Shown: positions 2,480 through 58,460 of the stretch, piece after piece
How positions within the stretch are numbered: position 1 is the stretch's first letter
How the letters are laid out: each line of letters begins with the position of its first letter
DNA from: Chloroflexota bacterium
Lineage (GTDB): Bacteria; Chloroflexota; Dehalococcoidia; FW602-bin16
NCBI GenBank assembly: GCA_004297765.1
Contig: SCTZ01000085.1
Span: 10,240 to 74,239 of the forward strand
Direction: 5' to 3'
DNA length: 64,000 nucleotides
The notes under the pieces: model-generated
What the model was told of the DNA's origin: nothing
What the model saw: the letters and a program-made list of their open reading frames with translations, nothing else
The model's database searches: none
Position numbers and translations under genes: made by a program

Positions 2480-2656
2480 CTACGAGATGAAAATGTTGAT
2501 GCACCCGTAGTTGGCATCGGTCGAGCAGTTCGGATCGGTATTGATGACCAGCTTGCCGTGGACCAAGTCAAAGTCTTTCTTCGTGCCAGCCCCGCCAAGA
2601 GTCAACTGGTCGATCCGCCCATACTCGATCAACTCTGGGCTCTTGTACATGTTCAC
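2480..2656 (-). CDS. lasso peptide precursor, copy A2 (58 aa)
   Basis: This is the C-terminal part of the 77-aa ORF 2480..2713. AGGAGGTGA precedes the conserved TTG-GTG start (GTG at 2656; alternative ATG at 2650). Product: (M)NMYKSPELIEYGRIDQLTL/GGAGTKKDFDLVHGKLVINTDPNCSTDANYGCINIFIS. It has the same YxxPxLx3Gx5Tx leader, Thr at -2 and Gly at core position 1. Confidence 0.75.
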   Translation of the reverse strand: MNMYKSPELIEYGRIDQLTLGGAGTKKDFDLVHGKLVINTDPNCSTDANYGCINIFIS

Positions 2657-2895
2657 CAAGGCATCACCTCCTTTCCACGCAATGTCGGCACCTTCCACAC
2701 CACTCGGCCGCACCAGCGCGCAGCAAGGACTGTCTCTGTCGTAGATCGCGTTGCGGCGAAGTCTGCGACATGTCGGACTTCCATGAGCGCACTCCGTCCA
2801 GGCGCCGCAACTCCACTTCTCTCAAAAACGGGAAGTTCTTCACGATCAGCGAAGCCCAGTCCCGTGGAGGTGGACCGTTCGAAGGCGAGCCTGTG

Positions 2896-5912: not shown

Positions 5913-6439
5913 TACTGCCTCTCCCTCGGAGCCGCATCGGACGACGCACGTGGTCGATGGGCGCCAACGTGTAAGATCGGGGCCGGGCGCTTCTTTCCGG
6001 GGTCGTTGCCGAGCGGCGTGAAGGGCGCCACTGATGCAGCCTCCTCATGCACGACGTATCCCGCCAACTCCACCCAGGCGTGGGCGGCCAACGCCCCGTG
6101 TTCTTTTCTCACCCCGATACGCAGTTCACTGGGAAGTCCTTCGCTAAGAAGCCAGTGGTGTAGACCAAGTGAGCGATGCAGGCACTGGGCACGGATGAAG
6201 TGGTGATGTGATGCGGACTCGATCACTCGCGCATACCGTCGTGCACGCCGATAATCGTCTTTGCTCACGCTGCATCTCTCCGGGTCCGCGATCGGCCGCG
6301 CTTTCTCCAGCACACGCTGGTAGCCGAGGAGCTTCAGCCCAACGTCGATAACAACGAGATGCGCGAACGCACGGAGGTACAGCCATCGATCGGAGTTTGA
6401 CAGCGCCGCGTATCGTCTGAACATTGAAAGCACGCGCAT
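5912..6439 (-). CDS. lasso peptide leader protease B2 (transglutaminase-like Cys protease)
   Basis: Motifs ...RAQCLHRSLGLHHWLLSEGLPSELRIGV...AAHAWVELAG match the Cys/His core of lasso B2 proteins. Start taken at MRVLSMFRRY (6439). Confidence 0.85.
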   Translation of the reverse strand: MRVLSMFRRYAALSNSDRWLYLRAFAHLVVIDVGLKLLGYQRVLEKARPIADPERCSVSKDDYRRARRYARVIESASHHHFIRAQCLHRSLGLHHWLLSEGLPSELRIGVRKEHGALAAHAWVELAGYVVHEEAASVAPFTPLGNDPGKKRPAPILHVGAHRPRASSDAAPRERQ

Positions 6440-6461
6440 TATGCCCCGCCTCTGTGGAGCC

Positions 6462-6743
6462 TCACTCGTCCGAGATCCGCACCAGACCCTTCGCACTCAG
6501 TTGACCGATGAGCTGAAAGAGATCTCGTCGCAGACGATCGGGCTCCACGTCATACTCGGTGAGGAGCTGGCTGGTGATCTCGGATTCGGTCGCACCCTGA
6601 ATAAGAAGCCGCCAGATCCGGGTCCCCACGTCATCCAATCCGTAGTAGATGCCGGTCTTGACGTTCAACAGAATCGCTTCGTCGTCCAGGTTGGCCCAGG
6701 TGACCGATTCATCGATCACTATTCTCCGCTGGAGTGTGGACAT
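6462..6743 (-). CDS. PqqD-family RiPP recognition element (lasso B1)
   Basis: MSTLQRRIVIDESVTWANLDDEAILLNVKTGIYYGLDDVGTRIWRLL...LSAKGLV is a typical PqqD/RRE sequence. GAGGAGG RBS lies upstream of the ATG at 6743. Confidence 0.85.
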   Translation of the reverse strand: MSTLQRRIVIDESVTWANLDDEAILLNVKTGIYYGLDDVGTRIWRLLIQGATESEITSQLLTEYDVEPDRLRRDLFQLIGQLSAKGLVRISDE

Positions 6744-37790: not shown

Positions 37791-37865
37791 GCGGGAGTAG
37801 CGCAGTGGTAGCGCACCTGCCTTCCAAGCAGGCTGTCGCGGGTTCGAGTCCCGTCTCCCGCTCCA
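37791..37865 (+). tRNA. tRNA-Gly (anticodon TCC), CCA encoded
   Basis: Manual cloverleaf. Acceptor GCGGGAG/CTCCCGC; D-arm GCGC-AGTGGTA-GCGC; anticodon arm CCTGC-CTTCCAA-GCAGG (TCC); T-arm GCGGG-TTCGAGT-CCCGT; then T-CCA. Confidence 0.9.
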
Positions 37866-37918: not shown

Positions 37919-38081
37919 CCGCCCCGAAAACGACCCCCAGTGGGGAATTGCGCAAATCGGCGTCTCGCAGGAAACGTGCTAGTGCGTTCCTGCCTTCCCC
38001 GGGAATCGCGGTCCACGGACTCTTTACTTGTCCCGGACTTGTCTCCCAGACAATTATCAAGGAAGGGAGACAAGTAGTAAG

Positions 38082-38894
38082 ATGGGCGCGAAGAGGTGGA
38101 ACGAATTGAAACCTGACAAACTCAAACTGGATAGCCTGAAGGGGCACTTCGAGGTCTTCAACCGCAGCGAGGGCAAGTCGCCCAAGACCGTGATCTGGTA
38201 CAACGAGACCTTGAAGGATTTCATCGCGTTCCTTGAGAAGGAGGGAATCCCGCCATCGCTGGCGACGGCCGATGAGATGGCGGTACGCCGCTACATTCTC
38301 GACCTGCAGAATAGGAAAGTCCACGGCAGGCCAATATCCAGCCATTCGGTAAACAGCCGCGTCCGAGCGCTGCGCGTATTCTACAACTGGCTTTACAACC
38401 AGAAATACACGAAGCGTAATTTGTTGGAGAAAGTCAGGCCGCCCAAGGCAGAGGAGAAGATCGTTGAACTCCTGACGGAGTCGGAGATAGCACGCCTTTT
38501 CGCTGCCTTCAACCCCAATACCGCGTTGGGAGCTCGCAACATTGCCATCATTGCTACGTTGCTAGACTGTGGGCTACGGCGGTCGGAAGCCATCGATCTC
38601 AAGGATGAAGACGCCAAACTCTCCGACGGCTACGTCAAAGTTATGGGCAAGGGGAGAAAGGAACGGATGGTGACCCTGGGTTCCACCAGCCAGCGAGCCT
38701 TGCCTCACTACCACCATCCCTTCCGTTCAGAGCAAGCCAACCCCATCACCATCGCCAACTTCTTCCTCAGCTGCCAGGGCTATCCCTTCACCTCATCAGG
38801 ACTGACAAGCATGATCGTCATACCATGGGAGCGTTCTGGTGTTCCGCGTCTGCACGTCTATTTTCGCTTCAGGACGCCGAGCGCAATATGTGTA
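38082..38894 (+). pseudogene. tyrosine recombinase (phage-integrase family), C-terminally truncated/degenerate
   Basis: SAM-like N-domain (TVIWYNETLKDFIAFL...RALRVFYNWL) and the first catalytic Arg context (ATLLDCGLRRSEAIDL, VMGKGRKER). After ...GLTSMI the H-x-x-R and Tyr region is unrecognisable. The frame then runs antisense into hbd, whose stop is at 38895. Confidence 0.7.
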
Positions 38895-39752
38895 CTATTC
38901 CTTGTTGTAGTCGTAAAAGCCCTTTCCGAATTTGCGTCCGAGCAGCCCAGCCTCTACCATCTGCCGCAGCAGCTGTGGCGGGCGGAACCGCTCCCCGAAC
39001 GTGCCCAGCAGACCCTCACCGGCGTGGAAGTGGATATCGAGACCGGTGTAGTCGGCGAGCTCGAAGGGTCCCATGGGATGATTCAGCCCCAGCTTGAGGG
39101 CCTTGTCGATATCTTCCCTGCTGGCCACGCCCTCCTCCAGGATACGCATGCACTCGTATTCGAAGGCGATCAGTGCGCGGGTGACAATGAAGCCCTGGGA
39201 GTCCTTGCACATGACCGTTTCTTTGCCGAGCATGTGAGAGATCTCCTCTATCTTCCGAGCGACCTCATCGGATGTCAATAGCCCGCGGACGATCTCAATT
39301 AGGCGCATCACGGGCGGCGGATTGAACCAGTGCATTCCAATAACCCGCTCGGGCCTCTTGGTGGCGCTGGCGATGGAGGTAATGCTGAGCTCGGAGGTGT
39401 TGCTGGCCAGGATTGCATCGGGACGGCAAACGCTATCCAACTCCGCAAAGATGTTCCTCTTTAGATCTAGGCGCTCGGGAACCGCCTCGATAACCAGGTC
39501 CGCCTGCTCGGCAACGGCCCGGAGGTCAGAACTGGGCTTGATGCGCGCCATCACCTGTGGCATGGCCTCCGCCTGCAGCTTCCCAGATTTCACCATGCGG
39601 GCAAGGCTGAACTGGATGGTCGATAGGGCCCGGTCCAAGATCTCCTCCGAGATATCCACCAGAACGACGTCGAAGCCGCTCAGGGCGCAAACCTGGGCGA
39701 TGCCGTTGCCCATGGTGCCGCTGCCGAGTGCCAGGATCTTTTGCACGGTCAC
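38895..39752 (-). CDS. hbd: 3-hydroxyacyl/3-hydroxybutyryl-CoA dehydrogenase
   Basis: KILALGSGTMGNGIAQVCALSGFDVVLVD Rossmann motif, plus a C-terminal 3HCDH domain (...NHPMGPFELADYTGLD). Confidence 0.9.
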   Translation of the reverse strand: MTVQKILALGSGTMGNGIAQVCALSGFDVVLVDISEEILDRALSTIQFSLARMVKSGKLQAEAMPQVMARIKPSSDLRAVAEQADLVIEAVPERLDLKRNIFAELDSVCRPDAILASNTSELSITSIASATKRPERVIGMHWFNPPPVMRLIEIVRGLLTSDEVARKIEEISHMLGKETVMCKDSQGFIVTRALIAFEYECMRILEEGVASREDIDKALKLGLNHPMGPFELADYTGLDIHFHAGEGLLGTFGERFRPPQLLRQMVEAGLLGRKFGKGFYDYNKE

Positions 39753-41151: not shown

Positions 41152-42099
41152 CTAGCCGCCCTTCTTCACCTGTGCGAGAAGTTCCGGCAGAATCGCGTAC
41201 AGGTCGCCCACGATGCCGTAGTCGCTTACCTTGAAAATCGGAGCGTCCGCCGCCTTGTTAATCGCAACGATCGTCTTTGCGCGCGTGATGCCGACCGTAT
41301 GCTGGATCTGACCGGAGACGCCGACCGCCAGGTAGAGCTTGGGCGCGGCCTTCACCCCGGTGAGTCCTACTATCCGATCCTCCGAGAGCCAGTGCAGGTC
41401 CATCCCAAGCGGTCGCGTGCAGGCGATCTCCGCTCCTATCGCGTCCGCGAGATCGCTGACCATTCGCAGGTCGTCTTGGTTGATCAATCCCTTCCCTACC
41501 GCGATGATCCGCTCAGCCTCCTCCAACCGCACGCCCTCTCTCGCCTTAGGCTTGCGCTCAAGCAGCCTCTTCTTTTTGCCTCCGGCGGCTAGCTCAACAT
41601 CGACCGTCTGTCCGGTCCGAGAAGCATCGCGCTCCGGACGACCAAAAGCGTAAGGCATGACCGCGTACACTTTTCTAGCAGTCAGAACCTCCTCAGTGGC
41701 CACCGAGTTGCCACCGAGGGTGTAGCGATCCGCCAGTAGCACGTCTCCCTCACGGCGCAAGTCGATCACATCCGTGACACAGCCGGCGCCCAGCCGCGTG
41801 GCAAGCCGCGCGGCGATCTCCTTGCCACGTTTGGTCGAAGAGATGAGGTAGATATCCACGCCGACCGTGTCCGCCAGCCGCGCGAGCGTCCCCGCGAGAT
41901 CGCTTTCGTCGGCCACGCCCTCCGCGGAGACGCGATACACTATGTCTGCGCCATTGAAGAAGCACTCGTCGACCGCGCCAGGCACACCATCCGACAGCAG
42001 CAGCGCAGCAACCCGGTCGCCCTGGCATAGCTCCGCGGCCTTGCCCAGCAGCTCATACAGCCCGCCGCTCTCTTCCGAAAAAGCAAGAATCTTCGTCAT
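41152..42099 (-). CDS. etfA: electron transfer flavoprotein alpha subunit (EtfA/FixB)
   Basis: C-terminal FAD-binding region ...LYLAVGVSGQIQHTVGITRAKTIVAINKAADAPIF...DYGIVGDL. Confidence 0.9.
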   Translation of the reverse strand: MTKILAFSEESGGLYELLGKAAELCQGDRVAALLLSDGVPGAVDECFFNGADIVYRVSAEGVADESDLAGTLARLADTVGVDIYLISSTKRGKEIAARLATRLGAGCVTDVIDLRREGDVLLADRYTLGGNSVATEEVLTARKVYAVMPYAFGRPERDASRTGQTVDVELAAGGKKKRLLERKPKAREGVRLEEAERIIAVGKGLINQDDLRMVSDLADAIGAEIACTRPLGMDLHWLSEDRIVGLTGVKAAPKLYLAVGVSGQIQHTVGITRAKTIVAINKAADAPIFKVSDYGIVGDLYAILPELLAQVKKGG

Positions 42100-42107
42100 T
42101 GTCTATC

Positions 42108-42893
42108 TCACCTCGTGATGGCTCCGTCCTTAAGGAGTGAATCGAGCAGGCATTTCACCACGTCTTCCGTCGCGCCTTCGTAGGTGATCCCTTTGCGACT
42201 GATCCGGGGTGCCACGTTCCGCGTGCGCTGGACCAGCTTGTCGACGGCGATGCGCTGGGCATCCAGTCCGAGGTCGTTGACCGTCCATTCCTGGACCGGC
42301 TTCTTCCCCGCCTTCAGGATGTCCGTCAGGGAGGGCAAGTGCGGCTCGTTGATCTCGGTGGTGACGCTCACCACGGCTGGGAGTTGGACCTCGACAGACT
42401 CGTAGCGATCTTCCAGATCACGCACGCAGCGCGCGATCCCTCCTTCGATCGAGATCTCCCGCACTCCCGTCACGCCAGGAACGCCCAGCAACTCGGAGAG
42501 AGTCGGCGCGATCAGCCCGGCATAGTTATCGATGGATCCCTCGCCCAGCAAGAGCACGTCGAACGCGCCGATCCGTTCTACGGCCTTGGCAAGTACCGTC
42601 GCCACGGCCGCCTCGTCCGCATCCGCGAGCCGCTCGTCTACTACCAGCCGGGCTTCGTCGGCTCCCATGGACAGGACCTCTTTGACGGTCTTCTTGAGGG
42701 TCTGTCCACCCGCGCTCACCACGACGACGCGACCGCCATGCTGGGTGCGCAGATGGATGGCGGTCTCGACCGCGTTCTTGCTCAGGTCCTCGATCTCCAG
42801 CGGCAGGCCGACCAGCTTCGGCTCGCCGGTGTTGTCGTCGATCCGCACCTGGTCCAGGTCGACCGCCTGTTTTACGCAGACCACAAATTCCAT
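42108..42893 (-). CDS. etfB: electron transfer flavoprotein beta subunit (EtfB/FixA)
   Basis: MEFVVCVKQAVDL...NAVETAIHL...VVVVSAG...DVLLLGEGSID: a typical ETF beta subunit. Confidence 0.9.
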   Translation of the reverse strand: MEFVVCVKQAVDLDQVRIDDNTGEPKLVGLPLEIEDLSKNAVETAIHLRTQHGGRVVVVSAGGQTLKKTVKEVLSMGADEARLVVDERLADADEAAVATVLAKAVERIGAFDVLLLGEGSIDNYAGLIAPTLSELLGVPGVTGVREISIEGGIARCVRDLEDRYESVEVQLPAVVSVTTEINEPHLPSLTDILKAGKKPVQEWTVNDLGLDAQRIAVDKLVQRTRNVAPRISRKGITYEGATEDVVKCLLDSLLKDGAITR

Positions 42894-42911
42894 ATGGCAG
42901 AGAACCTCCTC

Positions 42912-43199
42912 TTACCCCAACCGATACTGCACGCCGCAGCCGCCTTCCGGATACTCCCAGGTCAGATGGCTGCACACCACCAGACAGGTTCCGCATTCCA
43001 GGCAGCCCTCGTAGTTGAGCACGATCTGACCGTCCGCGCCCAATGAGTACAGGTTGCCCGGACAGATGCGCAGACACCAGCGCTCTCGACAAACCGCGCA
43101 CCGCGCCTGGTCGGGCAGAATGTGCGCAGCCTTAGCTATCTTGTAGGTGTTCAACCCCAGCTTCGCCTCGATGGACAGCTTTTCCTGCTCGTAGGTCAT
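42912..43199 (-). CDS. fixX: FixX-type ferredoxin-like protein
   Basis: Only the last 95 aa of the 307-aa ORF look coding: MTYEQEKLSIEAKLGLNTY...CAVCRERWCLRICP...CLECGTCLVVC. Its ATG overlaps the fixC stop (ATGA). Confidence 0.85.
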   Translation of the reverse strand: MTYEQEKLSIEAKLGLNTYKIAKAAHILPDQARCAVCRERWCLRICPGNLYSLGADGQIVLNYEGCLECGTCLVVCSHLTWEYPEGGCGVQYRLG

Positions 43200-44482
43200 A
43201 GCATTCGATAGCCTCCTAGCGCATCGCCCAGCAGCTTGAGAACCGAGACGCGGCTCGTGATCTCCCTGCGCGCAGCGCGAGAAAACCGCTCCTTGGGACT
43301 CCCATTGAAGAACATGGTCTGCTCCAGAGCGGCGCAAGCCAGATCCGGATAATCCCTGTAGAGACGCTGATTGTCTAGCAGATGCTGGGCCTTGCCAAAG
43401 GTTCCGAAGTCCCGGCCCACGAAGCTCCCGCGCAGTAGCCTGTCGAAGCGCGACAGCTTCGCGCGGGAGAGATCGCCGGCTTCTCGGGCCTCTTTGATAG
43501 CTCGAGCCGCAAGCGCTCCGCTGGCTATCGCATAGTCCATGCCGCGCACCGTTAGCCCCATGTTCAAGCAGAGGCCGGCGGCATCGCCGACGACCAGGAC
43601 GCCGTCCCCTACCAGGGTTTGAGGTATGACCGCGGCCTCCGGGATGAGGTGGGCAGCGTACTCGACCGTCCGTCCGCCTTTGACCAGGCGCTTGATCGTG
43701 GGATGCGATTTGAGACGCTCGGTCAACTCGGAGACCTGGAAATCTGCCCCCATGGCCGCCGCTATTTCCACCACCAGTCCAAGAGAGAGGCTCTCGCGGT
43801 TCGTGTACAGGAAGCCACCCCCCTTCGCACCGCACGACGGGAAGCCGACCATGAGCATGGCCGCGCCTTCGTTGCCCTCCAGGTTGAATCGATCCTCGAT
43901 GGTGCCGCGCGGAAGCTCGATGATCTCCTTAGCGGCGACCGCGCAGTGCTTCGGATGCGGTCGTCCCAGCAGACCAAGCTTCCGTGCAAGAAGAGAATTG
44001 ACGCCATCGGCGAGGACCACCACATCGGCATCGACCGTATCCCCGGCCGAGCGAACCCCGCAGACCCGCCCATCCACCGTCGCCAACTCGTCGACTTTCA
44101 TCTTCGTGACGATCAGTCCACCGGACTCTTCCACCTTCGACGCCAGCCACTGATCGAAGGTGCCACGGAGAACGCTATGGCTATGATAGGGGGCGGTCCC
44201 AAAGCGCGAGCTGAACAACTCCACACTAACGGACGCCTCGCCGTTCATGAAACAGAGAAGCTCGCGATTGACGTGCCGCTCGAAAGGAGCGTCGTCCCAC
44301 AGCCCTGGCAGCAACTGATCCAGCGATAGGGTGTAGATTCGCCCTCCGCTGACGTTCTTTGCACCAGGGTAGTCGCCACGCTCCACCACCAGCACCGGGA
44401 TCTCCTCCCGCGCCAGCGCGTAAGCGCAGGCGAGGCCGGCAAGGCCAGCCCCGACCACGATAACGTCGAACTTCTCCCCCAT
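43196..44482 (-). CDS. fixC: ETF-quinone oxidoreductase FixC (FAD-dependent)
   Basis: FDVIVVGAGLAGLACAYALA dinucleotide fold. The 428-aa length and the fixC-fixX coupling are typical. Confidence 0.88.
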   Translation of the reverse strand: MGEKFDVIVVGAGLAGLACAYALAREEIPVLVVERGDYPGAKNVSGGRIYTLSLDQLLPGLWDDAPFERHVNRELLCFMNGEASVSVELFSSRFGTAPYHSHSVLRGTFDQWLASKVEESGGLIVTKMKVDELATVDGRVCGVRSAGDTVDADVVVLADGVNSLLARKLGLLGRPHPKHCAVAAKEIIELPRGTIEDRFNLEGNEGAAMLMVGFPSCGAKGGGFLYTNRESLSLGLVVEIAAAMGADFQVSELTERLKSHPTIKRLVKGGRTVEYAAHLIPEAAVIPQTLVGDGVLVVGDAAGLCLNMGLTVRGMDYAIASGALAARAIKEAREAGDLSRAKLSRFDRLLRGSFVGRDFGTFGKAQHLLDNQRLYRDYPDLACAALEQTMFFNGSPKERFSRAARREITSRVSVLKLLGDALGGYRML

Positions 44483-47832: not shown

Positions 47833-48735
47833 TTAGGCAGTCACAGCCTCACCCAAAAGTTTATCTATCGCCGGTGCCTCGATCAGCAGGTCATCCACAA
47901 AAGCCTCTGCTTTCCTTGTCAGCAGACTGTGATAGCTCTGGAAAAGCTCTTGCGCTCTGTCGCCCAGCCAATCATCGGGAAGCAGATCCGCTGGGAGATT
48001 AGGATCGATGTAGGGGAGTTGACGGTACTCGTGAATCAACTCGAAACGACGAGTGAAATGCTCGCGGGAACTGTCGAGGTCAGGCTCAGCAAGCATGGAC
48101 TGGTACTGTGGCTCATAGCGGCTAATGAACTCCGCGTATTTCTTGGTGAGCGCCTTCGTGTTCCAGCACCGTTCGACGATCTCGCGATCCGAGGTGCGAC
48201 CATGGCGTACGCCATAGAACGTCTCCACATATCGTCGGACTTGGAGTTCGTCTAATACGACCTCGACATCCTGACGACAATCATGAGGCGATATCCACGT
48301 CGATTGATTCAGACGGCCAAACCCCAACCAAGCTAGCCGTTCTCGCAAACGGTTGCGCAGTTCTCGTTGCTTTTCATCGATTTGATAGATCACGACCAGC
48401 CACTTGCCATCCCAGGGATCCTTCCGGGGATGAAAGATGCGCTGGACACCCTCTCTCAACAAGACGGCACCCTTAGGCGTGAGCGAGTAGTAGCTGTTCC
48501 GCCCATGCTGACGAGTCCGAAACCATCCGCGACTGGACATCCTCGACAGCGTCGACCGAACGGCTTGATCCGACGCGCCGAAACAACTCATTATCTCTAT
48601 CAGGCTCCCCACCCACGCCTCACCGCCACGGTGCTGCAGGTAGTCGCCATACAGAGTGAAAAGGAGATTCTGCGTTCTGTTAGGCATTATTCTCTTTCCT
48701 GGACTTTTTGTATCAGGACCCTCAGGGTAGGACAA
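47833..48735 (-). CDS. paaX: PaaX-family transcriptional repressor
   Basis: LLFTLYGDYLQHRGGEAWVGSLIEIMSCFGASDQAVRSTLSRMSSRGW: a PaaX N-terminal wHTH plus a PaaX C-terminal domain. Confidence 0.85.
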   Translation of the reverse strand: MSYPEGPDTKSPGKRIMPNRTQNLLFTLYGDYLQHRGGEAWVGSLIEIMSCFGASDQAVRSTLSRMSSRGWFRTRQHGRNSYYSLTPKGAVLLREGVQRIFHPRKDPWDGKWLVVIYQIDEKQRELRNRLRERLAWLGFGRLNQSTWISPHDCRQDVEVVLDELQVRRYVETFYGVRHGRTSDREIVERCWNTKALTKKYAEFISRYEPQYQSMLAEPDLDSSREHFTRRFELIHEYRQLPYIDPNLPADLLPDDWLGDRAQELFQSYHSLLTRKAEAFVDDLLIEAPAIDKLLGEAVTA

Positions 48736-48844
48736 CGCCCTAACGCCAAGCCACCCGGCCGAGCGCGACGCATTGCAGTGAGCGGCTTCGGCGTTGGGGC
48801 AGCGCGTGATGATATTATCACGCGATATTTCCTATGTCAATCCC

Positions 48845-49678
48845 CTATCCCGCAGCCTTTCTAACTATGGTTCTCTTCCCCTCAGAAAGAGGAGGCGGAA
48901 CAGCCTCGCCAGATAGCTTCCTCACCGCATCGAATTGAGCCGGGCACACCTCTTGACACGTTCCGCATCTGATGCATTTTTCCTGTTCAATGACGTGGAC
49001 ACAGTTCTTGGCGCTGATGATCGCCTCCACCGGGCATCTCCTCGCGCAGATCATACAGGCCTGGCACTTCCCCGGCTCGATATAGTACGATGCCACGCCA
49101 CGGAACAAGGCCTCTATTTCTTCCCGCGTGAAAAACGTGTCATATTCTTCTTCATTAGTAAGACGTGTCCTCAGCTTCTCCTTCTTCACCTGCTTGATGT
49201 AGGGCACTAACTCCCTAACTATTGTAAGCTTGGCTCTTAGTTCTTCTTTGTCTATCCCCTCACCTGTGGCAAGGGGTCCTAACTCCTTTACCTTCTTGAC
49301 AAACGCATTCGTCACTTCGGCAAAGCGGATCCCTTCGCCGGCAGACATGAACTCGATGCTTAACCTTTCCGGGTTAAGCCCTACGTGCTCCATGATTCTT
49401 CTGCTGAGAAGCGCCGTGTTCAGGGCATGATAGTTGCCCTGAGTGACGTAGTTGCACTCATTCAAGCGGCAACCGCCGATGAACACCCCATCCATTCCAT
49501 TGGAGAGGGCCCGGAGCACAAACTCCAGATCGACTCGACCGGAACACATGACGCGGATCAGCCTGATTTCTGTTGTCAGTTGCAGTCTGGAAACTCCAGC
49601 CAGGTCAGCAGCCCCGTATGCTCACCAGTGACACACAAAGCCTAGGATTCGCGGTTTGAATTCACGTGCTGCGCTCAT
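48845..49678 (-). CDS. bamF: MvhD-like/2x[4Fe-4S] ferredoxin fusion (BamF-like) with in-frame TGA (putative Sec) at 49624-49622
   Basis: The ORF track starts at 49549 (MCSGRVD...). Reading upstream in the same frame gives MSAAREFKPRILGFVCHW-TGA-AYGAADLAGVSRLQLTTEIRLIRVMCSGRVD. The TGA sits where the MvhD consensus CNWCSY(A/G)GAD has Cys. C-terminal CQACMICARRCP...CIRCGTCQEVCP. Confidence 0.75.
49585..49600 (-). promoter_or_regulatory. candidate bacterial SECIS hairpin for the bamF TGA
   Basis: Minus strand GCUGGA-GUU-UCCAGAC, starting about 21 nt after the UGA. The stem is short, so this is only suggestive. Confidence 0.35.
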
Positions 49679-49713
49679 GCGTTCTCTCGTCCTTTGTTAG
49701 TAGCGTTTTGTGA

Positions 49714-52700
49714 CTACACAACTCCAACCAGTGCATCAACGTGTTTCGTGATCTCTTCCTCTGGAGCTGCCGCGTCGATTTGGGCTATCAACGCTTCATC
49801 GGTAAAGTGCTTCAGTTGAATAGCCCCCGCAGGGCACTTGGCGTTACAAAGCCCACAGCCTTTGCAGAGAACAGGATTAACGACCGACTTCTTGCCATTG
49901 CGTGTCTCACGCAGCTGTATGGCACCATACGTACAGGCGAGGACGCATTCCCCACAGCCGAAACACTTCTTCTCGTTCACCTCGCACACAGAGCCGGAGG
50001 CGACGACCGTATCATGGGAGAGAAGCGTTACCACCCGGCCTGCAGCTCCATAAGCCTGATTGATCACTTCCGGTATATGCTTGGGATAGTGCGCCATGCC
50101 ACACAGATAAACACCGTCCGCGCCAAAGTCGACCGGTCTCAATTTGACGTGGGCTTCCTTAAAGAAGTCATCCGGTCCCAAAGAGGCCCCGAATGATTGA
50201 GCTAGCTCTTTGTTTCCCGCCGGGGGAATGACCGCGGCAGCCAGAGCCACTATGTCGGCGTCTATCTCGAGCTTCTTCCCCAGGATGGGATCCGTCACGG
50301 TTACCCTTAGAACGGACCTGCCGCCCTCCTGAACAGCTTCCACTTGAGGCTTATCCTGTGGCTCCCAGCGGATGAACCTAACATCTTTGCTCGCCGCTTC
50401 CCGGTAACTATCCTCTTTGAACCCATAGGTTCTGATATCCCGAAAGAGAACGTAGACGTCCATCTTTGGATTCTTGTCTTTCAGCGACAAGGCATTTTTG
50501 ATGGACTCGCTGCAACAGACCCGGCTGCAGTAGTTTCTGTCTTCATTCCTACAGCCTACGCATTGGATCATTACCAGACTCTCGGCGCTTAGCACCCTTT
50601 CATCGCCTTGGTTGATCCTCTCGTCTAGTTCCAGGTGCGTCAATACCCTGTCATCTTCTCCATACAGGTATTCGGAGGGTTTGTATAAATCAGCACCCGT
50701 GGCGATGACGGTTGCGCCATGCTGTATCTCTGTGAGCCCTCGATAGGACTTTACCTTGGTCACGAAATTTCCCACATAGCCGGTGGCTTCCGTGATCGCG
50801 GCGTCCGTATATACATGTACCGAGGGGTGCTGGTAGACCTTGCGTATGAGGTCGCGCAGGTATGCCTGGACATCCAGCCTTTCGAGAGTGGTGTGGATCC
50901 TGCGTGCCATCCCTCCCAGATCCGCTTCCTTCTCCACCAGGTGGACCTCGTGTCCCTGGTTGGCTATGGAGAGGGCACAGGTCAGACCGGCTATGCCTCC
51001 GCCTACCACCAGGGCCGCCTTGTTTACAGGCAGATCGAATTCCTGCAGCGCCTCCAAACGGGCAGTTCGTGCCACCGACATCCGGATCAGATCCTTGGCC
51101 TTCTGGGTGGCTTCTTCCTTCTCCTTGGTGTGAACCCAGGAGCAATGTTCTCTAATATTGGCCATCTCGCAGTAGTACTGATTGATTCCCGCCTCCCGAA
51201 GGGTGTCCCGGAACAGCGCTTCAAGGGTCCTGGGGGAGCAGGCGGCGATGACCACTCGATTGAGCCCTTTTTCTTTTGCCAGGTCCGATATATCTTTGGC
51301 GGAATTAGTGGCACACGAGAATAGCTGCTCTGTCGCATAGACCACGTTGGGCAAGGTCAAGGCATATTCAACCGCGGAAGGAACATCGACCGTCCTTCCG
51401 ATATTCGCTCCACAACGACACACAAAGACACCAACCCTGGGCTCCTCTGTCGAGACATTCCTTTCTAGCGGATAGACCCTTTCCGTGGACAGCTTCCCTC
51501 GCCTGTAGTCGAGGAGCTCGCCAACCTGAGATCCAGCTCCGCTGGCGGTGAAAACCGACTCGGGAATGTCCATGGGCCCCTGGAAGGCTCCGCTTGCAAA
51601 GATCCCAGGTCTGGTGGTGGCCAAAGGATTGGAAGGACTTGCTTGGCAGAATCCGTGTGAGTTCAGCTCTACGCCGAACTTCCGGGCCAGGTCCTTAGAA
51701 GCCTCCGGTGGATTCAATCCTACGGACAGGACCACCATGTCGAACTCTTCTTCTTTGACGCCATCGTCGGGCGTGGCATACCGTATGGTGACATTCTTGG
51801 TTTTAGGGTCCTCTCTAACTATCGACACGTAGCTTCTGATGAAGCGAACCCCGGGAAGTTGCTCTGCCCGTTGGTAGTAGCGCTCGAAATCCTTGCCGTA
51901 GGACCGGATATCGTTGTGGAATATCGTACAGTCGGCCTCGGTGTTATGCTCTTTGGTCAAGATCACCTGCTTTTGAGCATAGGTGCAGCATACGGCTGAG
52001 CAATAGCTGTTATTACCCGGGGTTACCGCCCGTGAGCCGACGCACTGAATCCAGGCTATATTGTGGGGATGCTTCTTGTCCGAAGCACGCAGCACCTCTC
52101 CCTCGTATGGACCGGTGGTGCATAGCAGACGTTCATAGTCCATGCTGGTTACCACGTTCTGTATCCACCCGTAGCCGTATTCGTCAGCCACCGCAGGATC
52201 GAACGGCTCAACGCCAGGCGACAGAATTATCGCCCCTACCTTTACCTCCAGCTTCTCCCTCGTTTGAGTGAAATCGATGGCCTTGTTCTCGCATACGCGC
52301 TCGCAGATGCCACATTTCTTCTCTTTGAGGTAGAGACAGCTTTCATCTATATATGTGACAAGCGGGACTGCCTGGGCGAAGTAGATATGGATAGCCTTGT
52401 TCTGCGATATCTCCTGATTGAACTTGTCAGGGTACTTGACAGGGCAGTATTGCACGCAGGTAGTACAACCCGTGCATACGCTCTCAACAACATATCTGGG
52501 CTTCTTGACCAACGTTACGCTGAAGTTTCTAGCCTCACCTTCTACACTCGCAACGTCGGTATAGGTCAGGACCTCGATGTTAGCGTGCCGGTCGACCTCG
52601 ACCAGTTTGGGTGAGAGTATTCACATCGAGCAGTCGTTGGTGGGAAAGGTCTTGTCCAGTTGGGCCATGTGGCCACCAATGGCCGGGCCTTTCTCGACAA

Positions 52701-52839
52701 GGTAGACCTTGAAACCCGCGTTGGCGAGATCGAGCGAGGCTTGAATGCCGCTGATCCCTCCACCAACGACCATGACGTCTCCAAAACTACTGTTTCCGAG
52801 GCTCTTTCGCAGCTGTTCTACGATTCGTTCGTTTTCCAC
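49714..52839 (-). CDS. bamE: HdrA-like FAD/FeS oxidoreductase, ~1041 aa (BamE-like) with in-frame TGA (putative Sec) at 52623-52621
   Basis: The 72-aa ORF 52621..52839 (…[51 protein letters not shown]) ends at a TGA. The same frame continues [20 protein letters not shown]... into the 932-aa ORF. The HdrA consensus here is TNDCSMC(U)IL.PK. There is a second dinucleotide fold ([17 protein letters not shown]) and several CxxCxxCxxxCP clusters. GTG start at 52839. Confidence 0.8.
52588..52605 (-). promoter_or_regulatory. candidate bacterial SECIS hairpin for the bamE TGA
   Basis: Minus strand CUGGUCG-AGGU-CGACCGG: a 7-bp stem with a GGU-containing apical loop, starting 15 nt after the UGA. Confidence 0.45.
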
Positions 52840-52891
52840 TTTCTATCGCCCCATCAGGCTTTGCGTCCGCACACTGTCCCGGTTAGCCATA

Positions 52892-54043
52892 CTAAACTAC
52901 TTCCTGGAGAATCTCCGTGATGTCCTTAACCTGTATGGCCTCGGCATAATCCAGGACCGCGCTGGTATCCTCGAAATTGGTGATGCAATAGGGGCAGGCA
53001 GTAACCAGCTCCTCAGCCCCAAGCCCAATGGCCTCATCCATTCTGATGTTGGAGAACCTTTCGGACTTGGGCGTTTCCATCCAAATCCTGCCTCCTCCCA
53101 TTCCGCAACACAGGCTATTCTCCCGCTTCTCAGCCATCTCAACTAACTGTAAGCCGGGTATCCTCTTTAGGGTCTCTCGGGGTGCGTCGTATACGCCATT
53201 ATGTCGACCCAGATAACACGGGTCGTGATATGTCACCTTCTTGCCGTACTCCTGGCTGATCTGAAGCCTTCCCTCGCTGATGAGCTCGAACACATACTGG
53301 GAAGTATGGACCACCTCGAAATTCACCTTGAACTCGGGGTACTCGTTCTTGAAGGTGTGGTAGCAATGAGGAGAAGACACCAGGATCTTCTGCACGCCGT
53401 TATCGATAAAGGCTTTGATGTTTTCCCTGGCCAGGCGTTTGAATAGCTCCTCATTACCTGCCTTTCGGATGCTTTCTCCACAGCAGTTCTCGCTGGAGCC
53501 GAGTACTCCGAAATCTACCCCCGCCTTATTGAGGACCCTGGCCGTAGCCTGGGCTACCTTCTTTAGTCTAGGGTCGTAGCTGCTATAGCAGCAGGGGAAA
53601 TACAACACTTCCATTCCTTCGGCGAATGGTCTTACAGACAGACCCTGGGCCCAATCCGCCCTGTTCTGGCGGTTTTCGTTGAAGGGATTACCCTGGGAGG
53701 TCAGACCTGCGCTGATACTGCGGATAAGCTTGGCACCGGCAGGGAAAACGCCATACCCCGTCGCCATTCTGCGCACGGCTACCATGTCGTCTATCTGCTT
53801 TACCTGCCTGGGACATAGTTGATGGCACTTTCCACAGGTGGTGCAGCGCCAGATCTCTTCGCTTTCTATCTCGGTCAGACCGAAAGTGGCCTCGCGAATC
53901 AGCTTGCGCATACTGAACTGTCTGACCCTGTTCCAGGGACAGACAGTATCGCACTTGCCGCATTGATAGCAGAGCTTGACGGCGTCGCCGCCTTTCTCTT
54001 TTATCTCATCGATGACTTCTTTGAAAGGGGCTACTGTCTCCAT
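52892..54043 (-). CDS. bamD: HdrD-like FeS protein with CCG domains (BamD-like)
   Basis: N-terminal 2x[4Fe-4S] (CYQCGKCDTVCP, CTTCGKCHQLCP) and two Cys-rich CCG-type domains (YFPCCYSS...CCGES; HDPCYLGR...CCGMGGG). Confidence 0.8.
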   Translation of the reverse strand: METVAPFKEVIDEIKEKGGDAVKLCYQCGKCDTVCPWNRVRQFSMRKLIREATFGLTEIESEEIWRCTTCGKCHQLCPRQVKQIDDMVAVRRMATGYGVFPAGAKLIRSISAGLTSQGNPFNENRQNRADWAQGLSVRPFAEGMEVLYFPCCYSSYDPRLKKVAQATARVLNKAGVDFGVLGSSENCCGESIRKAGNEELFKRLARENIKAFIDNGVQKILVSSPHCYHTFKNEYPEFKVNFEVVHTSQYVFELISEGRLQISQEYGKKVTYHDPCYLGRHNGVYDAPRETLKRIPGLQLVEMAEKRENSLCCGMGGGRIWMETPKSERFSNIRMDEAIGLGAEELVTACPYCITNFEDTSAVLDYAEAIQVKDITEILQEVV

Positions 54044-54052
54044 CCACCTATC

Positions 54053-54592
54053 CTAGCCCTTCTGTGACATCCGGGCGAGGCTATCAATCACATTCTGCAA
54101 CCCAAATTTGTCAACCAATGAGTTCAGCCCGGTGTCCATGTCGCTCAGCCTCTCTTCTTCTTCGGCCTCTTCCTCAGCTTCTTCGTAAGTCAGAGCGTCA
54201 GTAATGCACCACTGAACGCACAAGGGTTCTTCCTGTGGCGGATCGTCTTCACACATATCGCATTTTACAGGAAGACCGGAATCGGGCTCGTGGAAAAGCG
54301 TCCTGGATGGGCAGGAAGCTCTACAGAAGTCACAGTCGCTGTATTCCTTTCCGTCAATGACATATCTGTTCTTGCCCATACATTCGGAGGCAGTATACTG
54401 ACCCGCGTAAACAGGAAGATATACGTCTCTTATTGGCTCACGAACCACCCGAATTCGGGACCTCTCTGGATTATTACTGCTATATCTTGGCGTCGCGTGA
54501 AAGGCGGAGCAGATCACCTCACATGCCCGGCAACCATTGCACAGATCGGGATCAATCTTGACCTTCTTGACCTTCTTCTTAGTTTTGCTCAT
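54053..54592 (-). CDS. bamC: 4Fe-4S ferredoxin-type subunit (BamC-like)
   Basis: 179 aa with CNGCRACEVICS, CDFCRASCP, CDMCEDD...CVQWC and an acidic tail. Its start overlaps the 3' end of bamB by 14 nt. Confidence 0.8.
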   Translation of the reverse strand: MSKTKKKVKKVKIDPDLCNGCRACEVICSAFHATPRYSSNNPERSRIRVVREPIRDVYLPVYAGQYTASECMGKNRYVIDGKEYSDCDFCRASCPSRTLFHEPDSGLPVKCDMCEDDPPQEEPLCVQWCITDALTYEEAEEEAEEEERLSDMDTGLNSLVDKFGLQNVIDSLARMSQKG

Positions 54593-56546
54593 TTGTTATG
54601 ATCGCTCTCTGTTCTAAGTCCTCGGCGACGTAACCTAGACCCAATTCATGCAAGGACTCTTTCGTCGGAATACCCTGATTATCCCACCCCTTGAATGTGT
54701 AATACGCGTCCAAGAGCTTCTCTTCCAACTCGGGAAATCTTCTCTTCCAATGGTCCTCTGGTGGCTTGTCGTCAACTCTCCTCAGGCCTCTTCTTACGTT
54801 GAAGGCTCTTATCAGACTTCGGTTCCTCCTATATACCTGCGCGAGTTTGGCTTCATCCATATTGATCCCGGTCGCGGCTGAGATAAAGTCCGGGTAATTG
54901 TGTATGTGATATGGGGGCTTCAGGGGAAACGAAGACAAACCTGCGCACATCCCGACTGCATCATCGATGTAGTGCATCTTCTCTTGCCAGTCAACGATAT
55001 CAACGGACATGTCAACAGTTGGGTAATAGGGATTTGAGCGTTCTCCACGCGGTTCCCAGTCCAGAAAGTATTGCCTGAACCTTTCATCAGGAACCTGGAT
55101 CCAATCTTCGACAAAGCCTTCCCTCTCCTTGAGCGTGGGAAAAGGCTCCTGGGGGAACTGCCCTTCAATTTGGGTGATGTTTGCCTTCTCGCCGGTGGCG
55201 TACATCAAGAAATAAACGGGATTCAGCATTCCAAGCTTGAGAGGCAGCTGCTCATGTTTCTTGATGTTATTGTGTGCATATGCTTCTGCGCCGTTACCGA
55301 TGTGTTGGGCCGCCCAATACGTGCCATCGGCCAACACATCTCCGATCCCTTCTCGCCGAACAATTCTATCAAGTAGCCAGTAGAATCTCCCTTCTGTATC
55401 GGACGGCATTCCTGGCATATCCTGGTCAGTCAAAATGCCCGCTTCATAAAGCTCGAGGGCAAAGGCCATAGTCTGCGGGGTTGAGAATCCGTCCACGCCA
55501 TACTCTGTAGCGCGTTGAGCGATTCTAAAACCAAAATCCAGGTCTGAAAAGGCTGCCATGGTATAAGTGAGTTTCGAGTAGCATTTCATCATGTAAGTAG
55601 AAATGCCCGGGACTGTAATTGTTGCCCCACATTTCATCGGACAGTTGTAGCAACTTATCAACCGCTTTCGCACAGTCTCCTGGGTCTCTCGCCATTTCTC
55701 TTCGACGTCCGCAGTCCAAAAGTCCCTTTTCCGAACGCGGGAGTTTCCCCACATAAAACTGGTGGTATGCCACTTCTCATCGACGATTTTCATCTCTTGT
55801 GGTGATCCAAGTCCAGCCAAGATGGGCATCACCCCAGGAACAGGCTTATCTGCTCGGTATTGAATATAATCCAGCACCTGGTTGCACAACTCGATAAACT
55901 CAGCCGGTCGGGCAATATTGAGGTCCTTTGTTCCCCGAACGGCTATCGCCTTTATCCCTTTGTCTCCCATAACAGCGCCTATTCCGAGTCGGCTAGCACT
56001 GGATCTGCCATGCTCGATGGAAGCCATAAAGACTCTATTTTCGCCGGCCAGGCCGATAGCAGCCACCTGAGCTCTCGGTTCATTCAACTCTTGTCGAATG
56101 AGTTCCACAGTTTCGACAGCGCCTTTACCCCGCAAGTGAGAGGCATCACGTATTTCGACTTTGTCGTCGTGTATCCACAAGTAAACGAGATCAGGGGACT
56201 TGCCGCGAAAGATCACTTTGTCGTAACCGGCATACTTCAATTCTGGAGCCCAAAATCCCCCCATCATTGAGTATCCCATGAACAAAGTCTGAGGAGAAAT
56301 GGTAGAAACGATGGTACGATTAGCACCAATAGCGGGTGTGCCACATAAGAGGCCGGTGCCAAATACGAGGAGATTATCAGGAGAAAAGGGTCCAGTTTCA
56401 GGGGGGACCCTATCCCACAATATCTTGACGTTAGTGCCTAGCCCCCCTAGATGAAGCTCTGTTAATTTTGGATCAGTCTCAACCCTCTCAATGTTCCCCC
56501 GAGTTAGATCGATTTCTAGATTATACCCTGTCTCTGCGTACCTCAT
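54579..56546 (-). CDS. bamB: aldehyde:ferredoxin-oxidoreductase-family tungsto/molybdopterin enzyme (BamB-like active-site subunit of class II benzoyl-CoA reductase)
   Basis: 655 aa from MRYAETGYNLEIDLTRGNIERVETDPKLTELHLGGLGTNVKILWDRVPP...GFWAPELKYAGYDKVIFRGKS. AOR N-terminal and domains 2/3 run throughout. The N-terminus closely resembles my recollection of Geobacter BamB. Operon order is B-C-D-E-F. Confidence 0.82.
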   Translation of the reverse strand: MRYAETGYNLEIDLTRGNIERVETDPKLTELHLGGLGTNVKILWDRVPPETGPFSPDNLLVFGTGLLCGTPAIGANRTIVSTISPQTLFMGYSMMGGFWAPELKYAGYDKVIFRGKSPDLVYLWIHDDKVEIRDASHLRGKGAVETVELIRQELNEPRAQVAAIGLAGENRVFMASIEHGRSSASRLGIGAVMGDKGIKAIAVRGTKDLNIARPAEFIELCNQVLDYIQYRADKPVPGVMPILAGLGSPQEMKIVDEKWHTTSFMWGNSRVRKRDFWTADVEEKWRETQETVRKRLISCYNCPMKCGATITVPGISTYMMKCYSKLTYTMAAFSDLDFGFRIAQRATEYGVDGFSTPQTMAFALELYEAGILTDQDMPGMPSDTEGRFYWLLDRIVRREGIGDVLADGTYWAAQHIGNGAEAYAHNNIKKHEQLPLKLGMLNPVYFLMYATGEKANITQIEGQFPQEPFPTLKEREGFVEDWIQVPDERFRQYFLDWEPRGERSNPYYPTVDMSVDIVDWQEKMHYIDDAVGMCAGLSSFPLKPPYHIHNYPDFISAATGINMDEAKLAQVYRRNRSLIRAFNVRRGLRRVDDKPPEDHWKRRFPELEEKLLDAYYTFKGWDNQGIPTKESLHELGLGYVAEDLEQRAIITNEQN

Positions 56547-56724
56547 TTCAAGCCCCCTCTCGTCACTATCGGCTGACGATCTTGAACCGGTTCGCCTAGT
56601 TCGTTGCGGCTCGTCATTCCTCCACGGCTCTGGCTCAACTCTACTGAGGAGGTGTTGATGGTCCACGTGACTTACCGGTGCGTTCACCAAGTCCATAGCG
56701 CTTTCGCAGTGGCGGACCGCCGTG

Positions 56725-58460
56725 CATTGGTTACAAGGTTAACGTAGATTACGTGCGAATGGCAGCCATATCGTCGTTGGATTGGCATCCAACATGGTGG
56801 GCGTCCTGGCCGGTAAGCTGAAGTGAGCCCCCCGGCTCCACTAAGCTACAGAAAGGACGCCCGAGATGATTGTAACTCGTCAGGACCAGACAGTGGTCGA
56901 GACCGAGCACGCGCTGCTCATCGCGTGTGGACGGTTTGCCGAGCAGGTTGGATTGCTTGCAGCGCTGGAGCAGGTGCCCTTCAAGATGAAGACCATTGAC
57001 CGTAGCCCCGAGGAGAAGACCGCCGAGCTTCTCGCCCACATCCTCGCTGGCGGCATGCATGTCAACGAGTTGGCCAAGAGTGCCCACCCGCTGGTGAAGG
57101 ATCAGGCGGTGGCCGAAGCGTGGGGGCAGAAGACCTTCGCCTCGGTCTCGGGCGTCTCCGACCTCTTGCGCTCGGTCTCGCAAGATACTGTCGAGGCTCT
57201 CACGGCGCAACTGCGCCAGGTGCTCGCGCCCCATCGCCGACGCATTCTGCGCGACCTGAGCCCGTCCTTCCTGGTCGTGGACCTTGACCTCACGGGCCTG
57301 GTGGTCAGCGATCAGGCCACGACGTACGAGGGCGCCGACTTTGGCTACATGGGCGAACTCGACGGAGTCGGCCGCGGCTACCAGTTCGCCCGTGCCCAAC
57401 TGGTCGGTCAGACGGATGCTTTTGTCCTCGGAGGCTTCCTCCACCCAGGACGCACGGTCGAGACCCATTGTCTGCGCGAACTGGTGGCGCTCATCGAGAC
57501 CGAGGTGGGGAGACCACGCCGGCGGGTCGAGTTGGTCGAGAGCCGTCTGATCGACCTCGAGCAAAAGTTGGCCGAGGTCGAGACCGCATTGACCAGGCGC
57601 GAGGCTGGCGGCGCGTTCTTGCGGCGACGCGTGCGGCGCCTGGAACGCGAGCGTGAGCGGCTTCAGACGCAGTTGGAGTGCCTGCGAACCCGGCGGGATG
57701 AGCTGACGGCCGAGAATGACGCCAACCCGAATCCCCGTCGGATCATCTTGCGCCTGGACGGGGGCTTTGGAGATGCGGCCAAGCTCGCCTGGCTCTACGA
57801 GCAGGGCTACGACTTCGTCGTCCGGGCCCACAACCATCGGGTGTCCGAGCGTCTGCGCTGTGAGGTCGGCTTGAGTTGGCAGAAGGTGAGCAAGAACGGC
57901 TTCATGGCCGAGAGTCAGCAGACCAGCCTCGGCGATTGTCCCTACCCAATGCGGTTGTTCCTCTGTAAGCAATGGTGGGGCGACAAAAGACCAGAACGTT
58001 GGTCGGCCTTGATCGTGACGCCGACTCTGAAGTCCGCACAGTGGCCGACCCGACGGGTCGGCGTCTTCTATGACGGGCGCCAGGTCATTGAGGCAGGCAT
58101 CAAAGAGGGGAAGGGGATCTTTGCCAGCCGTCACCTGCCCACGCGTCACCACGCGGGCATCGCCTTCTACGAGGAGTTGGTACTCCTGGCTCAGAACCTG
58201 GTTCGCTGGTTTCGTCGGCAGTTCCTGGGTAACACGGTCCTGGCCGCTGCCAGCGTCAAAGAACTCGTCCGCATCGGCGCCAACAGCCGAGCGCAGGTGC
58301 TGCACCGCGGCGAGGCGCTCTCGCTGACTTTCGCCGTGGATAGCCCATGGCACGGTATCACTCTGTCGCTCAAGACCCAGTTTAGCTACCAACTTTGGCT
58401 CCCGATGCTTGACGATCTCGTCTCTATTCGCACGTAATCTGCGCTAACTTGTAACCAATG
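56725..58460 (+). mobile_element. intact insertion sequence (1736 bp) with ~36-bp terminal inverted repeats and 9-bp target-site duplication
   Basis: IRL cattggttacaaggttaacgtagattacgtgcgaat (56725-56760). The reverse complement of IRR (58426-58460) is cattggttacaagttagcgcagattacgtgcgaat. The flanking direct repeat ACCGCCGTG lies at 56716-56724 and 58461-58469. Confidence 0.88.
56866..58437 (+). CDS. DDE transposase (IS4-superfamily-like; family not certain)
   Basis: The 523-aa ORF fills the IS and its stop lies inside IRR. LVVDLDLTG and ILRLDGGFG are DDE-like contexts. A 9-bp TSD is compatible with the IS4 family. Confidence 0.8.
   Translation: MIVTRQDQTVVETEHALLIACGRFAEQVGLLAALEQVPFKMKTIDRSPEEKTAELLAHILAGGMHVNELAKSAHPLVKDQAVAEAWGQKTFASVSGVSDLLRSVSQDTVEALTAQLRQVLAPHRRRILRDLSPSFLVVDLDLTGLVVSDQATTYEGADFGYMGELDGVGRGYQFARAQLVGQTDAFVLGGFLHPGRTVETHCLRELVALIETEVGRPRRRVELVESRLIDLEQKLAEVETALTRREAGGAFLRRRVRRLERERERLQTQLECLRTRRDELTAENDANPNPRRIILRLDGGFGDAAKLAWLYEQGYDFVVRAHNHRVSERLRCEVGLSWQKVSKNGFMAESQQTSLGDCPYPMRLFLCKQWWGDKRPERWSALIVTPTLKSAQWPTRRVGVFYDGRQVIEAGIKEGKGIFASRHLPTRHHAGIAFYEELVLLAQNLVRWFRRQFLGNTVLAAASVKELVRIGANSRAQVLHRGEALSLTFAVDSPWHGITLSLKTQFSYQLWLPMLDDLVSIRT

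Follow-up and report, generated by a model that had tools for sequence, protein, structure and literature searches.

The locus considered here raises the question of whether two adjacent open reading frames (ORFs) of 72 and 932 codons, listed on the minus strand of a Chloroflexota bacterium contig, are separate genes, pieces of a gene broken by a stop codon, or one gene in which an internal UGA is read as selenocysteine (Sec). The stretch of DNA that was analyzed, further referred to as the window, comprises 64,000 nt of contig SCTZ01000085.1 (assembly GCA_004297765.1), and the gene in question is bamE, encoding an HdrA-like subunit of the tungsten-containing class II benzoyl-CoA reductase (BCR). 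Our results point to the last possibility: bamE is very probably a single intact selenoprotein gene, with UGA at codon 73 decoded as Sec, and a hairpin downstream of this codon acting as a bacterial Sec insertion sequence (SECIS) element. The features in question are as follows.

49714..52839, minus strand: bamE, 1041 codons and a TAG stop, predicted Sec at codon 73; double HdrA-like flavo-iron-sulfur subunit of class II (tungsten) benzoyl-CoA reductase
52621..52623, minus strand: UGA (U73), second residue of the C70-S-M-U73 motif, predicted to be read as selenocysteine
52630..52632, minus strand: Cys70 (TGC), partner thiol of the CxxU motif, as read from the sequence
52588..52605, minus strand: SECIS-type hairpin CUGGUCG-AGGU-CGACCGG with a 7-bp stem, inside the coding sequence

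Continuity of the bamE Reading Frame

The minus-strand frame starting with GTG at 52839 extends to TAG at 49716-49714 and comprises 1041 sense or Sec codons with exactly one internal stop, TGA at 52623-52621, in the context TNDCSM-U-ILSPK. A preliminary description of the locus, made from the nucleotide sequence, had proposed that the ORF track splits one selenoprotein of about 1041 aa, that the N-terminal fold binding flavin adenine dinucleotide (FAD) resides in a 72-aa ORF ending at this TGA, and that the frame runs on into a 932-aa ORF whose TTG start is an artefact; the frame reading and Pfam domains agree with all three statements. The 72-codon ORF (52621-52839) spans GTG 52839 to ATG 52626-52624, followed by TGA, and contains the FAD fold (residues 21-60). 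The 932-aa ORF, as listed, occupies 49714-52512, with TTG at 52512 being the first start codon after the TGA; the two-piece structure arises because the ORF lister restarts at the first start codon past a stop, and the 36 codons between TGA and TTG 52512 are conserved coding sequence. In the large piece, Pfam identifies a second Pyr_redox_2 module at approximately 610-750 and a C-terminal Fer4 domain (2x[4Fe-4S]).

The preliminary description had also suggested aligning the two pieces with full-length BamE and HdrA. They are collinear with both, and 111 full-length homologues begin like the 72-aa piece. BamE of the window shares 73-88% identity with homologues about 1030 aa long and has the expected organization, approximately 1000 aa with two HdrA/TrxR-like FAD modules and ferredoxin domains. 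In this protein, no Cys or Sec precedes Cys70, and the next such residue is U73; Cys70 is invariant in every Sec-type and Cys-type sequence examined.

Conservation of the Cys/Sec Site

Homologues were identified using the joined protein, with U replaced by C, as a query, and the 120 best relatives were examined. Among them, 111 are full-length (about 1030 aa, 73-78% identity), including proteins from Pelotomaculum, Desulfoscipio, Syntrophorhabdales and others, and all 111 read DCSMC at the site. The remaining nine, the window's own protein among them, are all truncated just past it. The first 440 residues match HdrA structures (5ODC, 7BKB, 8RVU) at E = 1e-117 to 1e-120, with residue 73 aligned without gaps to Cys197 of HdrA in PDB 5ODC, in the motif TNDCSIC-ILAPK.

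To find TGA at the same site, contigs of one genome per species were scanned with the back-translated pattern TNDC(S/T)(M/I)-TGA-IL.PK. At least 119 species genomes have TGA at exactly the homologous codon, all of them in frame on both sides. Among the matches listed are about 95 BamE orthologues (68-82% identity), surrounded by bamB, bamC, bamD and bamF, and about 25 remoter HdrA paralogues, 38-53% identical to BamE. The statement that HdrA proteins have either Cys or Sec at this residue thus holds for full-length homologues, the HdrA structure and TGA-containing genes, remote paralogues included.

Four metagenome relatives (L001, L002, L124, and L125) contain exactly one in-frame stop each, which is the homologous TGA. 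In comparisons of the window with these four, the ratio of nonsynonymous to synonymous substitution rates (dN/dS) is 0.03-0.14 in the 72-codon piece and 0.08-0.12 in the remainder; with dN/dS about 0.1 on either side of the TGA, both sides are therefore kept as protein-coding. We thus observe the pattern of a Sec/Cys pair, that is, TGA over a conserved Cys, coding conservation on both sides, and TGA-containing orthologues elsewhere.

The two types of bamE apparently co-occur in one genome, the Syntrophorhabdaceae chromosome OY762209.1 (5,508,164 bp), where a Sec-type BamE is encoded in locus L027, and a Cys-type one, followed by bamF and genes resembling bamGHI, in locus L122.

SECIS-Type Hairpin

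A 7-bp stem with an AGGU loop, beginning 15 nt past the UGA, had been noted in the preliminary description as a plausible bacterial SECIS, and our analysis upholds both the structure and its interpretation. The hairpin is located at 52605-52588 (nt +19 to +36), with the loop at 52598-52595 and one U-G wobble among the seven stem pairs; the distance between the UGA and the loop is 22 nt, made of 15 unpaired nucleotides and the 7-nt stem arm. It is the minimum-free-energy (MFE) structure, and, taken alone, has the energy of -9.7 kcal/mol (z = -2.7). The bSECISearch consensus for bacterial elements (PMC13188914) places an apical loop, 3-9 nt in length, on top of an upper stem with 4-16 bp, at a UGA-loop distance of 16-37 nt and with MFE of at most -7.5 kcal/mol; one or both of the first two loop nucleotides should be G, usually with G or U as the next one. 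The window hairpin agrees with all four rules (4-nt loop and 7-bp stem, 22 nt, -9.7 kcal/mol, G in the loop). Pairing of the helix amounts to 95% over 121 Sec-type sequences; in the A-G-G-U loop, G27 is kept in 111 of the 121, and G28 is invariant.

In place of a covariation test, we considered the synonymous-codon entropy, with 115 Cys-type genes as a control. In Sec-type genes, the synonymous entropy of the six hairpin codons, CUG GUC GAG GUC GRC CGG, is 0.07-0.69 bit, and that of most flanking codons, 1.0-2.0 bit. The same six codons in the 115 Cys-type genes vary normally (0.74-2.1 bit, the flanking codons of these genes not being separately compared with the hairpin codons). The best local hairpin has the median energy of -3.8 kcal/mol in Cys-type genes (n = 115) vs. 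-10.2 kcal/mol in Sec-type ones, and a local hairpin of -7.5 kcal/mol or lower is found in 9.6% of the 115 Cys-type vs. 100% of the 121 Sec-type genes, the sequences being related and the nominal P value of this comparison therefore inflated. These comparative data indicate that selection at the RNA level acts on the hairpin in TGA-containing genes only. The suppressed synonymous change, limited to the hairpin codons of TGA-bearing genes, also lends indirect support to a putative role of the hairpin in SelB binding and UGA read-through.

Remote Sec-type HdrA paralogues have a different 7-bp hairpin, which in most of them is positioned 5 nt further downstream (nt +24 to +41) and has the loop GGUC, also found at the apex of the Escherichia coli fdhF SECIS. 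The stems of these hairpins differ between subfamilies by compensatory changes (GGAUGUC/GACAUCC, GGAGGCC/GGUCUCC, and GGAUGCC/GGCAUCC). The paralogues come from the following loci, in several of which the Sec-type HdrA is paired with a Cys-type MvhD.

Remote Sec-type HdrA paralogue loci: L005, L006, L013, L021, L031-L033, L038, L041, L044, L058, L059, L069, L079, L089, L090, L094, L114

The window hairpin resembles the SECIS of Escherichia coli fdhF, whose sequence was confirmed in 5,419 E. coli genomes: both are located in the coding sequence just past the UGA and have GGU in a small apical loop, the hairpin top being GC-AGGUC-UGC in fdhF and CG-AGGUC-GA in the window. Unlike fdhF, the loop in the window is 5 nt further from the UGA (G28 U29 vs. 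G23 U24), and a bulged U is absent from the stem. Another difference is observed with archaeal Sec-HdrA genes, whose SECIS elements lie in the 3'-untranslated region (PMC13188914), whereas the hairpin in the window is in frame.

Bacterial-type Sec-bamE genes with an in-frame hairpin are also found on contigs assigned to a Candidatus Bathyarchaeota metagenome-assembled genome (MAG; L004), a Hyphomicrobiales MAG (L066), and a Pseudomonadota MAG (L014). These unexpected taxa reflect either contaminated binning or gene transfer; an archaeon, as in the case of L004, is not expected to read an in-frame bacterial SECIS.

The bamBCDEF Operon and a Second Predicted Sec Codon

Five consecutive minus-strand genes at 56696-48845 have, according to Pfam, the order bamB-C-D-E-F, which is the arrangement expected for class II BCR. 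In addition to bamE, these are:

54579..56696, minus strand: bamB, tungsten subunit of the aldehyde:ferredoxin-oxidoreductase type; Pfam AFOR_N and AFOR_C
54053..54592, minus strand: bamC, poly-ferredoxin; Pfam Fer4 families; 56-72% identity in tblastn
52892..54043, minus strand: bamD, HdrD-like, two CCG domains and Fer4; Pfam CCG 3e-36
48845..49678, minus strand: bamF, 277 codons; FlpD/MvhD domain and C-terminal 2x[4Fe-4S] domain

BamD is 59-81% identical to products of the genes adjacent to Sec-type bamE in other genomes, and most tblastn matches of BamB in other loci are 55-81% identical. The adjacent bamF also has an in-frame UGA, at 49624-49622 (codon 19, context FVCHW-U-AYGAAD), followed by a small hairpin CUGGA-GUU-UCCAG at 49599-49587; the single-sequence fold of this region has z of about 0. 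The same TGA is present in 61 other FlpD/MvhD genes of the fetched loci, mostly with conserved GCUGGAGUUUCCAGAC. This recurrence of the paired TGA agrees with the earlier argument that a second such codon in an adjacent gene favors Sec decoding over pseudogenization.

The operon is linked to genes of the benzoyl-CoA pathway (dch, had, and oah). Oah scores 557 bits with TIGR03200, above the cut-off of 464, and the Dch-like and Had-like genes score below their NCBIfam cut-offs. Also nearby are genes for acyl-CoA dehydrogenase, a FixC-like oxidoreductase, both subunits (alpha and beta) of the electron-transfer flavoprotein (ETF), and thiolases, and Pfam identifies a PaaX-like regulator after bamF. 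The genes for ETF alpha, ETF beta, and the FixC-like flavoprotein (41152-44482) have the orientation of bamF and lie 5-8 kb downstream of it, which fits a 2026 report of ETF as the high-potential electron acceptor of class II BCR.

No bamGHI genes (NuoE/F/G-like) were found in the 64-kb window by tblastn with the BamG/H/I-like proteins of L001 and L123. The sole match of these queries lies in BamF: its Fer4 tail (48854-49150) and the C-terminus of BamH from L001, a NuoF-like protein, share 62% identity. The fusion of BamF with ferredoxin is observed in 27 Sec-type loci, and the short FlpD form, with or without a helix-turn-helix domain, in 20; bamGHI follow bamF in L001, which has the short form, and in two Cys-type loci, L122 and L123. 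The bamGHI genes may be located elsewhere in the genome, or the BamF-Fer4 form may dispense with them, and the window may encode a BCR variant with a different electron-input module.

Outside the aromatic-degradation genes, the left end of the window contains a homologue of asparagine synthetase resembling lasso-peptide cyclases (2896-4920; NF033535, 345 bits, below the cut-off of 525), adjoined by an MsbA-like ABC exporter (581-2341). Together with further unassigned ORFs, the region 581-6496 may be a lasso-peptide cluster.

Comparison With Known Systems and Proposed Mechanism

HdrA and FrhD/MvhD are among the commonest bacterial selenoprotein families, and Sec-HdrA is often found in an operon with Sec-containing MvhD/FrhD (PMC1794560); Sec-HdrA is described for methanogens and Deltaproteobacteria/Firmicutes (PMC1794560, PMC13188914). 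Like HdrA, BamE has a TrxR-like FAD domain and the motif TNDCS(I/M)C-ILAPK, with U73 at the position of Cys197, which serves in methanogen HdrA as a ligand to the partner protomer's N-terminal [4Fe-4S] cluster (PMC9012536). BamE differs from methanogen HdrA in being a fusion of two HdrA modules without the N-terminal Fe-S domain that holds the Cys197-ligated cluster.

BamE (dmul_C24500/10) is among the five UGA/SECIS selenoprotein genes of the Desulfococcus multivorans genome (PMC5109826). Identical TGA sites and hairpins are present in many fetched Desulfobacteraceae genomes, and, judging from these relatives, the Sec site of D. multivorans BamE is likely the same as in the window. D. multivorans belongs to Desulfobacterota, and the window host, to Chloroflexota.

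The closest structural counterpart is BCRII of Geobacter metallireducens, studied by cryo-electron microscopy (preprint 10.64898/2026.04.10.717634). It shares with the window the bamBCDEF module and Sec19 of BamF, which is seen in the structure. In Geobacter BamE, Cys59-Cys62 form a redox-switched dithiol/disulfide pair. The disulfide, present in one conformational state, has cluster E3 at a distance of 3.4 A and the bifurcating FAD at 13.3 A, and was proposed by the authors to pass on the low-potential electron (10.64898/2026.04.10.717634). Being the first Cys/Sec residues to appear in BamE of the window, C70 and U73 would correspond to Geobacter Cys59 and Cys62, with U73 matched to Cys62 by its position in the motif rather than by alignment. 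Differences are also observed: the second position of C-x-x-C is occupied in Geobacter BamE by Cys rather than Sec, and HdrA is not among the Geobacter selenoproteins listed in the available portion of PMC1794560; moreover, Geobacter has bamGHI, absent from the 64-kb window, and BamF of the window has an additional C-terminal ferredoxin domain.

In the mechanism that we propose, the UGA at codon 73 would be decoded as Sec during translation, with the 18-nt hairpin recruiting SelB-GTP-Sec-tRNA(Sec) when the UGA reaches the A site, by analogy with the E. coli paradigm. The product would be the 1041-residue BamE, the HdrA-type flavin-based electron-bifurcating subunit of tungsten class II BCR, in which Sec73 would replace the second Cys of the C-x-x-C motif beside the bifurcating FAD. 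The Cys70-Sec73 thiol/selenol (selenenylsulfide) pair would then be placed on the low-potential branch feeding BamC/BamB, and BamF would contribute a second Sec (U19) adjoining its [2Fe-2S] cluster. A broader scheme may be tentatively suggested, although we consider it rather doubtful: a streamlined, ferredoxin-fed, doubly selenium-dependent class II BCR, in which the selenols of BamF-U19 and BamE-C70/U73 act in a relay, the BamF-ferredoxin fusion replaces BamGHI, and the whole, with its almost invariant SECIS, forms a cassette that travels between phyla and has here entered Chloroflexota.

Alternative Explanations

Several observations weigh against Sec decoding of bamE or against details of the proposed mechanism. 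The region folded in the 67 nt after the UGA has z = -0.77, not significantly more stable than shuffles, and the single-sequence fold thus does not set the hairpin apart from chance; the comparative data show the hairpin to be more than chance. In the main group of 121 sequences the hairpin is essentially devoid of covariation, because its sequence hardly varies, and no Rfam family matches the region 48500-53000 at E <= 1. With the offset of 11 between Cys59/62 and C70/U73, Lys280 of Geobacter BamE falls at Q291, the window having Lys at 290, so that there should be a one-residue indel somewhere between. Neither selA, selB, nor selD were found in the window by NCBIfam scans of 30 of the larger ORFs, and ARAGORN identified only a tRNA-Gly gene there and no tRNA-Sec. 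Finally, the G+C content is 0.50-0.55 across bamBCDEF (48-56 kb) vs. 0.60-0.63 elsewhere in the window, and an IS1380-family transposase-like ORF (56866-58437, plus strand) abuts bamB. The absence of sel genes from the window, the G+C dip and the transposase would all fit a recent transfer of the operon into a host lacking the Sec machinery, in which TGA terminates translation, and bamE and bamF are truncated and non-functional despite their selenoprotein ancestry. The same is true of the identity levels: the best named matches of the flanking GlcD, encoded by a housekeeping-type gene, are from Chloroflexota MAGs, at only about 62% identity, whereas BamE has closer counterparts in several phyla, a Chloroflexota MAG protein being 88% identical to it, and Desulfobacterota and Bacillota proteins, 75-82%. 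From the G+C dip, the transposase, and this contrast it follows that the operon, SECIS included, was probably acquired laterally. Yet a host that has left the UGA without decoding is unlikely, given that, apart from the TGA, bamE and bamF show no defect along their 3.1 and 0.8 kb, and that the nearest relatives (85-88% identity; P0002 of a Chloroflexota MAG, and L124) keep the split, with L124, the closest relative for which DNA is available (85%), having the same single TGA and dN/dS of about 0.1, that is, purifying selection. Moreover, other Chloroflexota are reported to encode Sec-containing formate dehydrogenases (PMC5736913).

Other explanations of the in-frame TGA leave out selenium altogether. 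The gene could be truly split, with an FAD-fold peptide of 72 residues and a protein of about 930-950 residues, translated from its own start, assembling non-covalently, and indeed gene callers produce this two-piece model both here and in relatives. However, the 17-36 codons from the TGA to any restart encode conserved residues that align with full-length homologues and HdrA structures, the start points chosen by the callers vary between relatives, and neither TAA nor TAG is ever found at the site, where TGA invariably takes the place of the conserved Cys; this makes a genuine split very improbable. We assign an equally low probability to UGA being read as another amino acid (Trp or Gly reassignment) or to TGA being a sequencing error for TGC or TGT. 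UGA reassignments do occur in some uncultured bacteria, but in the window TGA terminates ordinary genes: the dch-like gene matches its NCBIfam profile from end to end and stops with TGA at 45866-45864, and a reassigned code is therefore not the explanation. No in-frame TGA splits in the window other than those of bamE and bamF look like more than adjacent ORFs. Besides, TGA with the dedicated hairpin is present in more than 120 independent assemblies, and the homologous residue is Cys, the standard counterpart of Sec. Decoding of the UGA as Sec in a single intact bamE thus remains the explanation that we prefer.

With regard to the lateral transfer of the operon, we also observe a tRNA-Gly(TCC) gene (37791-37865) immediately followed by a gene for a XerC/XerD-like tyrosine recombinase (38028-39281), and then by the thiolase, ETF, acyl-CoA dehydrogenase, dch, oah, and bam genes. 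The tRNA-Gly gene and the recombinase could mark the boundary of an integrated island containing the whole aromatic-degradation cluster.

Biological Significance

Selenocysteine is already known in HdrA-family proteins and in BamE (PMC1794560, PMC5109826), and the window gene joins this known selenoprotein family; the findings on bamE and bamF do not overturn the current understanding. Mildly new are the occurrence in Chloroflexota, a SECIS that hardly varies from phylum to phylum, and the ferredoxin-domain BamF with no bamGHI in 64 kb. In deep-sea Chloroflexi single-cell genomes reported in 2017, the class I enzyme was found, and no class II (PMC5736913).

For annotation, the 72-aa and 932-aa ORFs, as well as the split bamF, should be joined and annotated as two selenoprotein genes, since in the split form they leave the organism seemingly without a functional ring-reducing enzyme. 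For the family, Sec would be placed at the residue that the Geobacter BCRII structure puts on the low-potential electron path (the Cys59-Cys62 switch), and about 100 Sec-type vs. more than 100 Cys-type orthologues form a comparison set for the role of the C-x-x-C/U pair in HdrA-type electron bifurcation. For ecology, the locus points to anaerobic degradation of aromatic compounds in a Chloroflexota bacterium that would require both selenium and tungsten.

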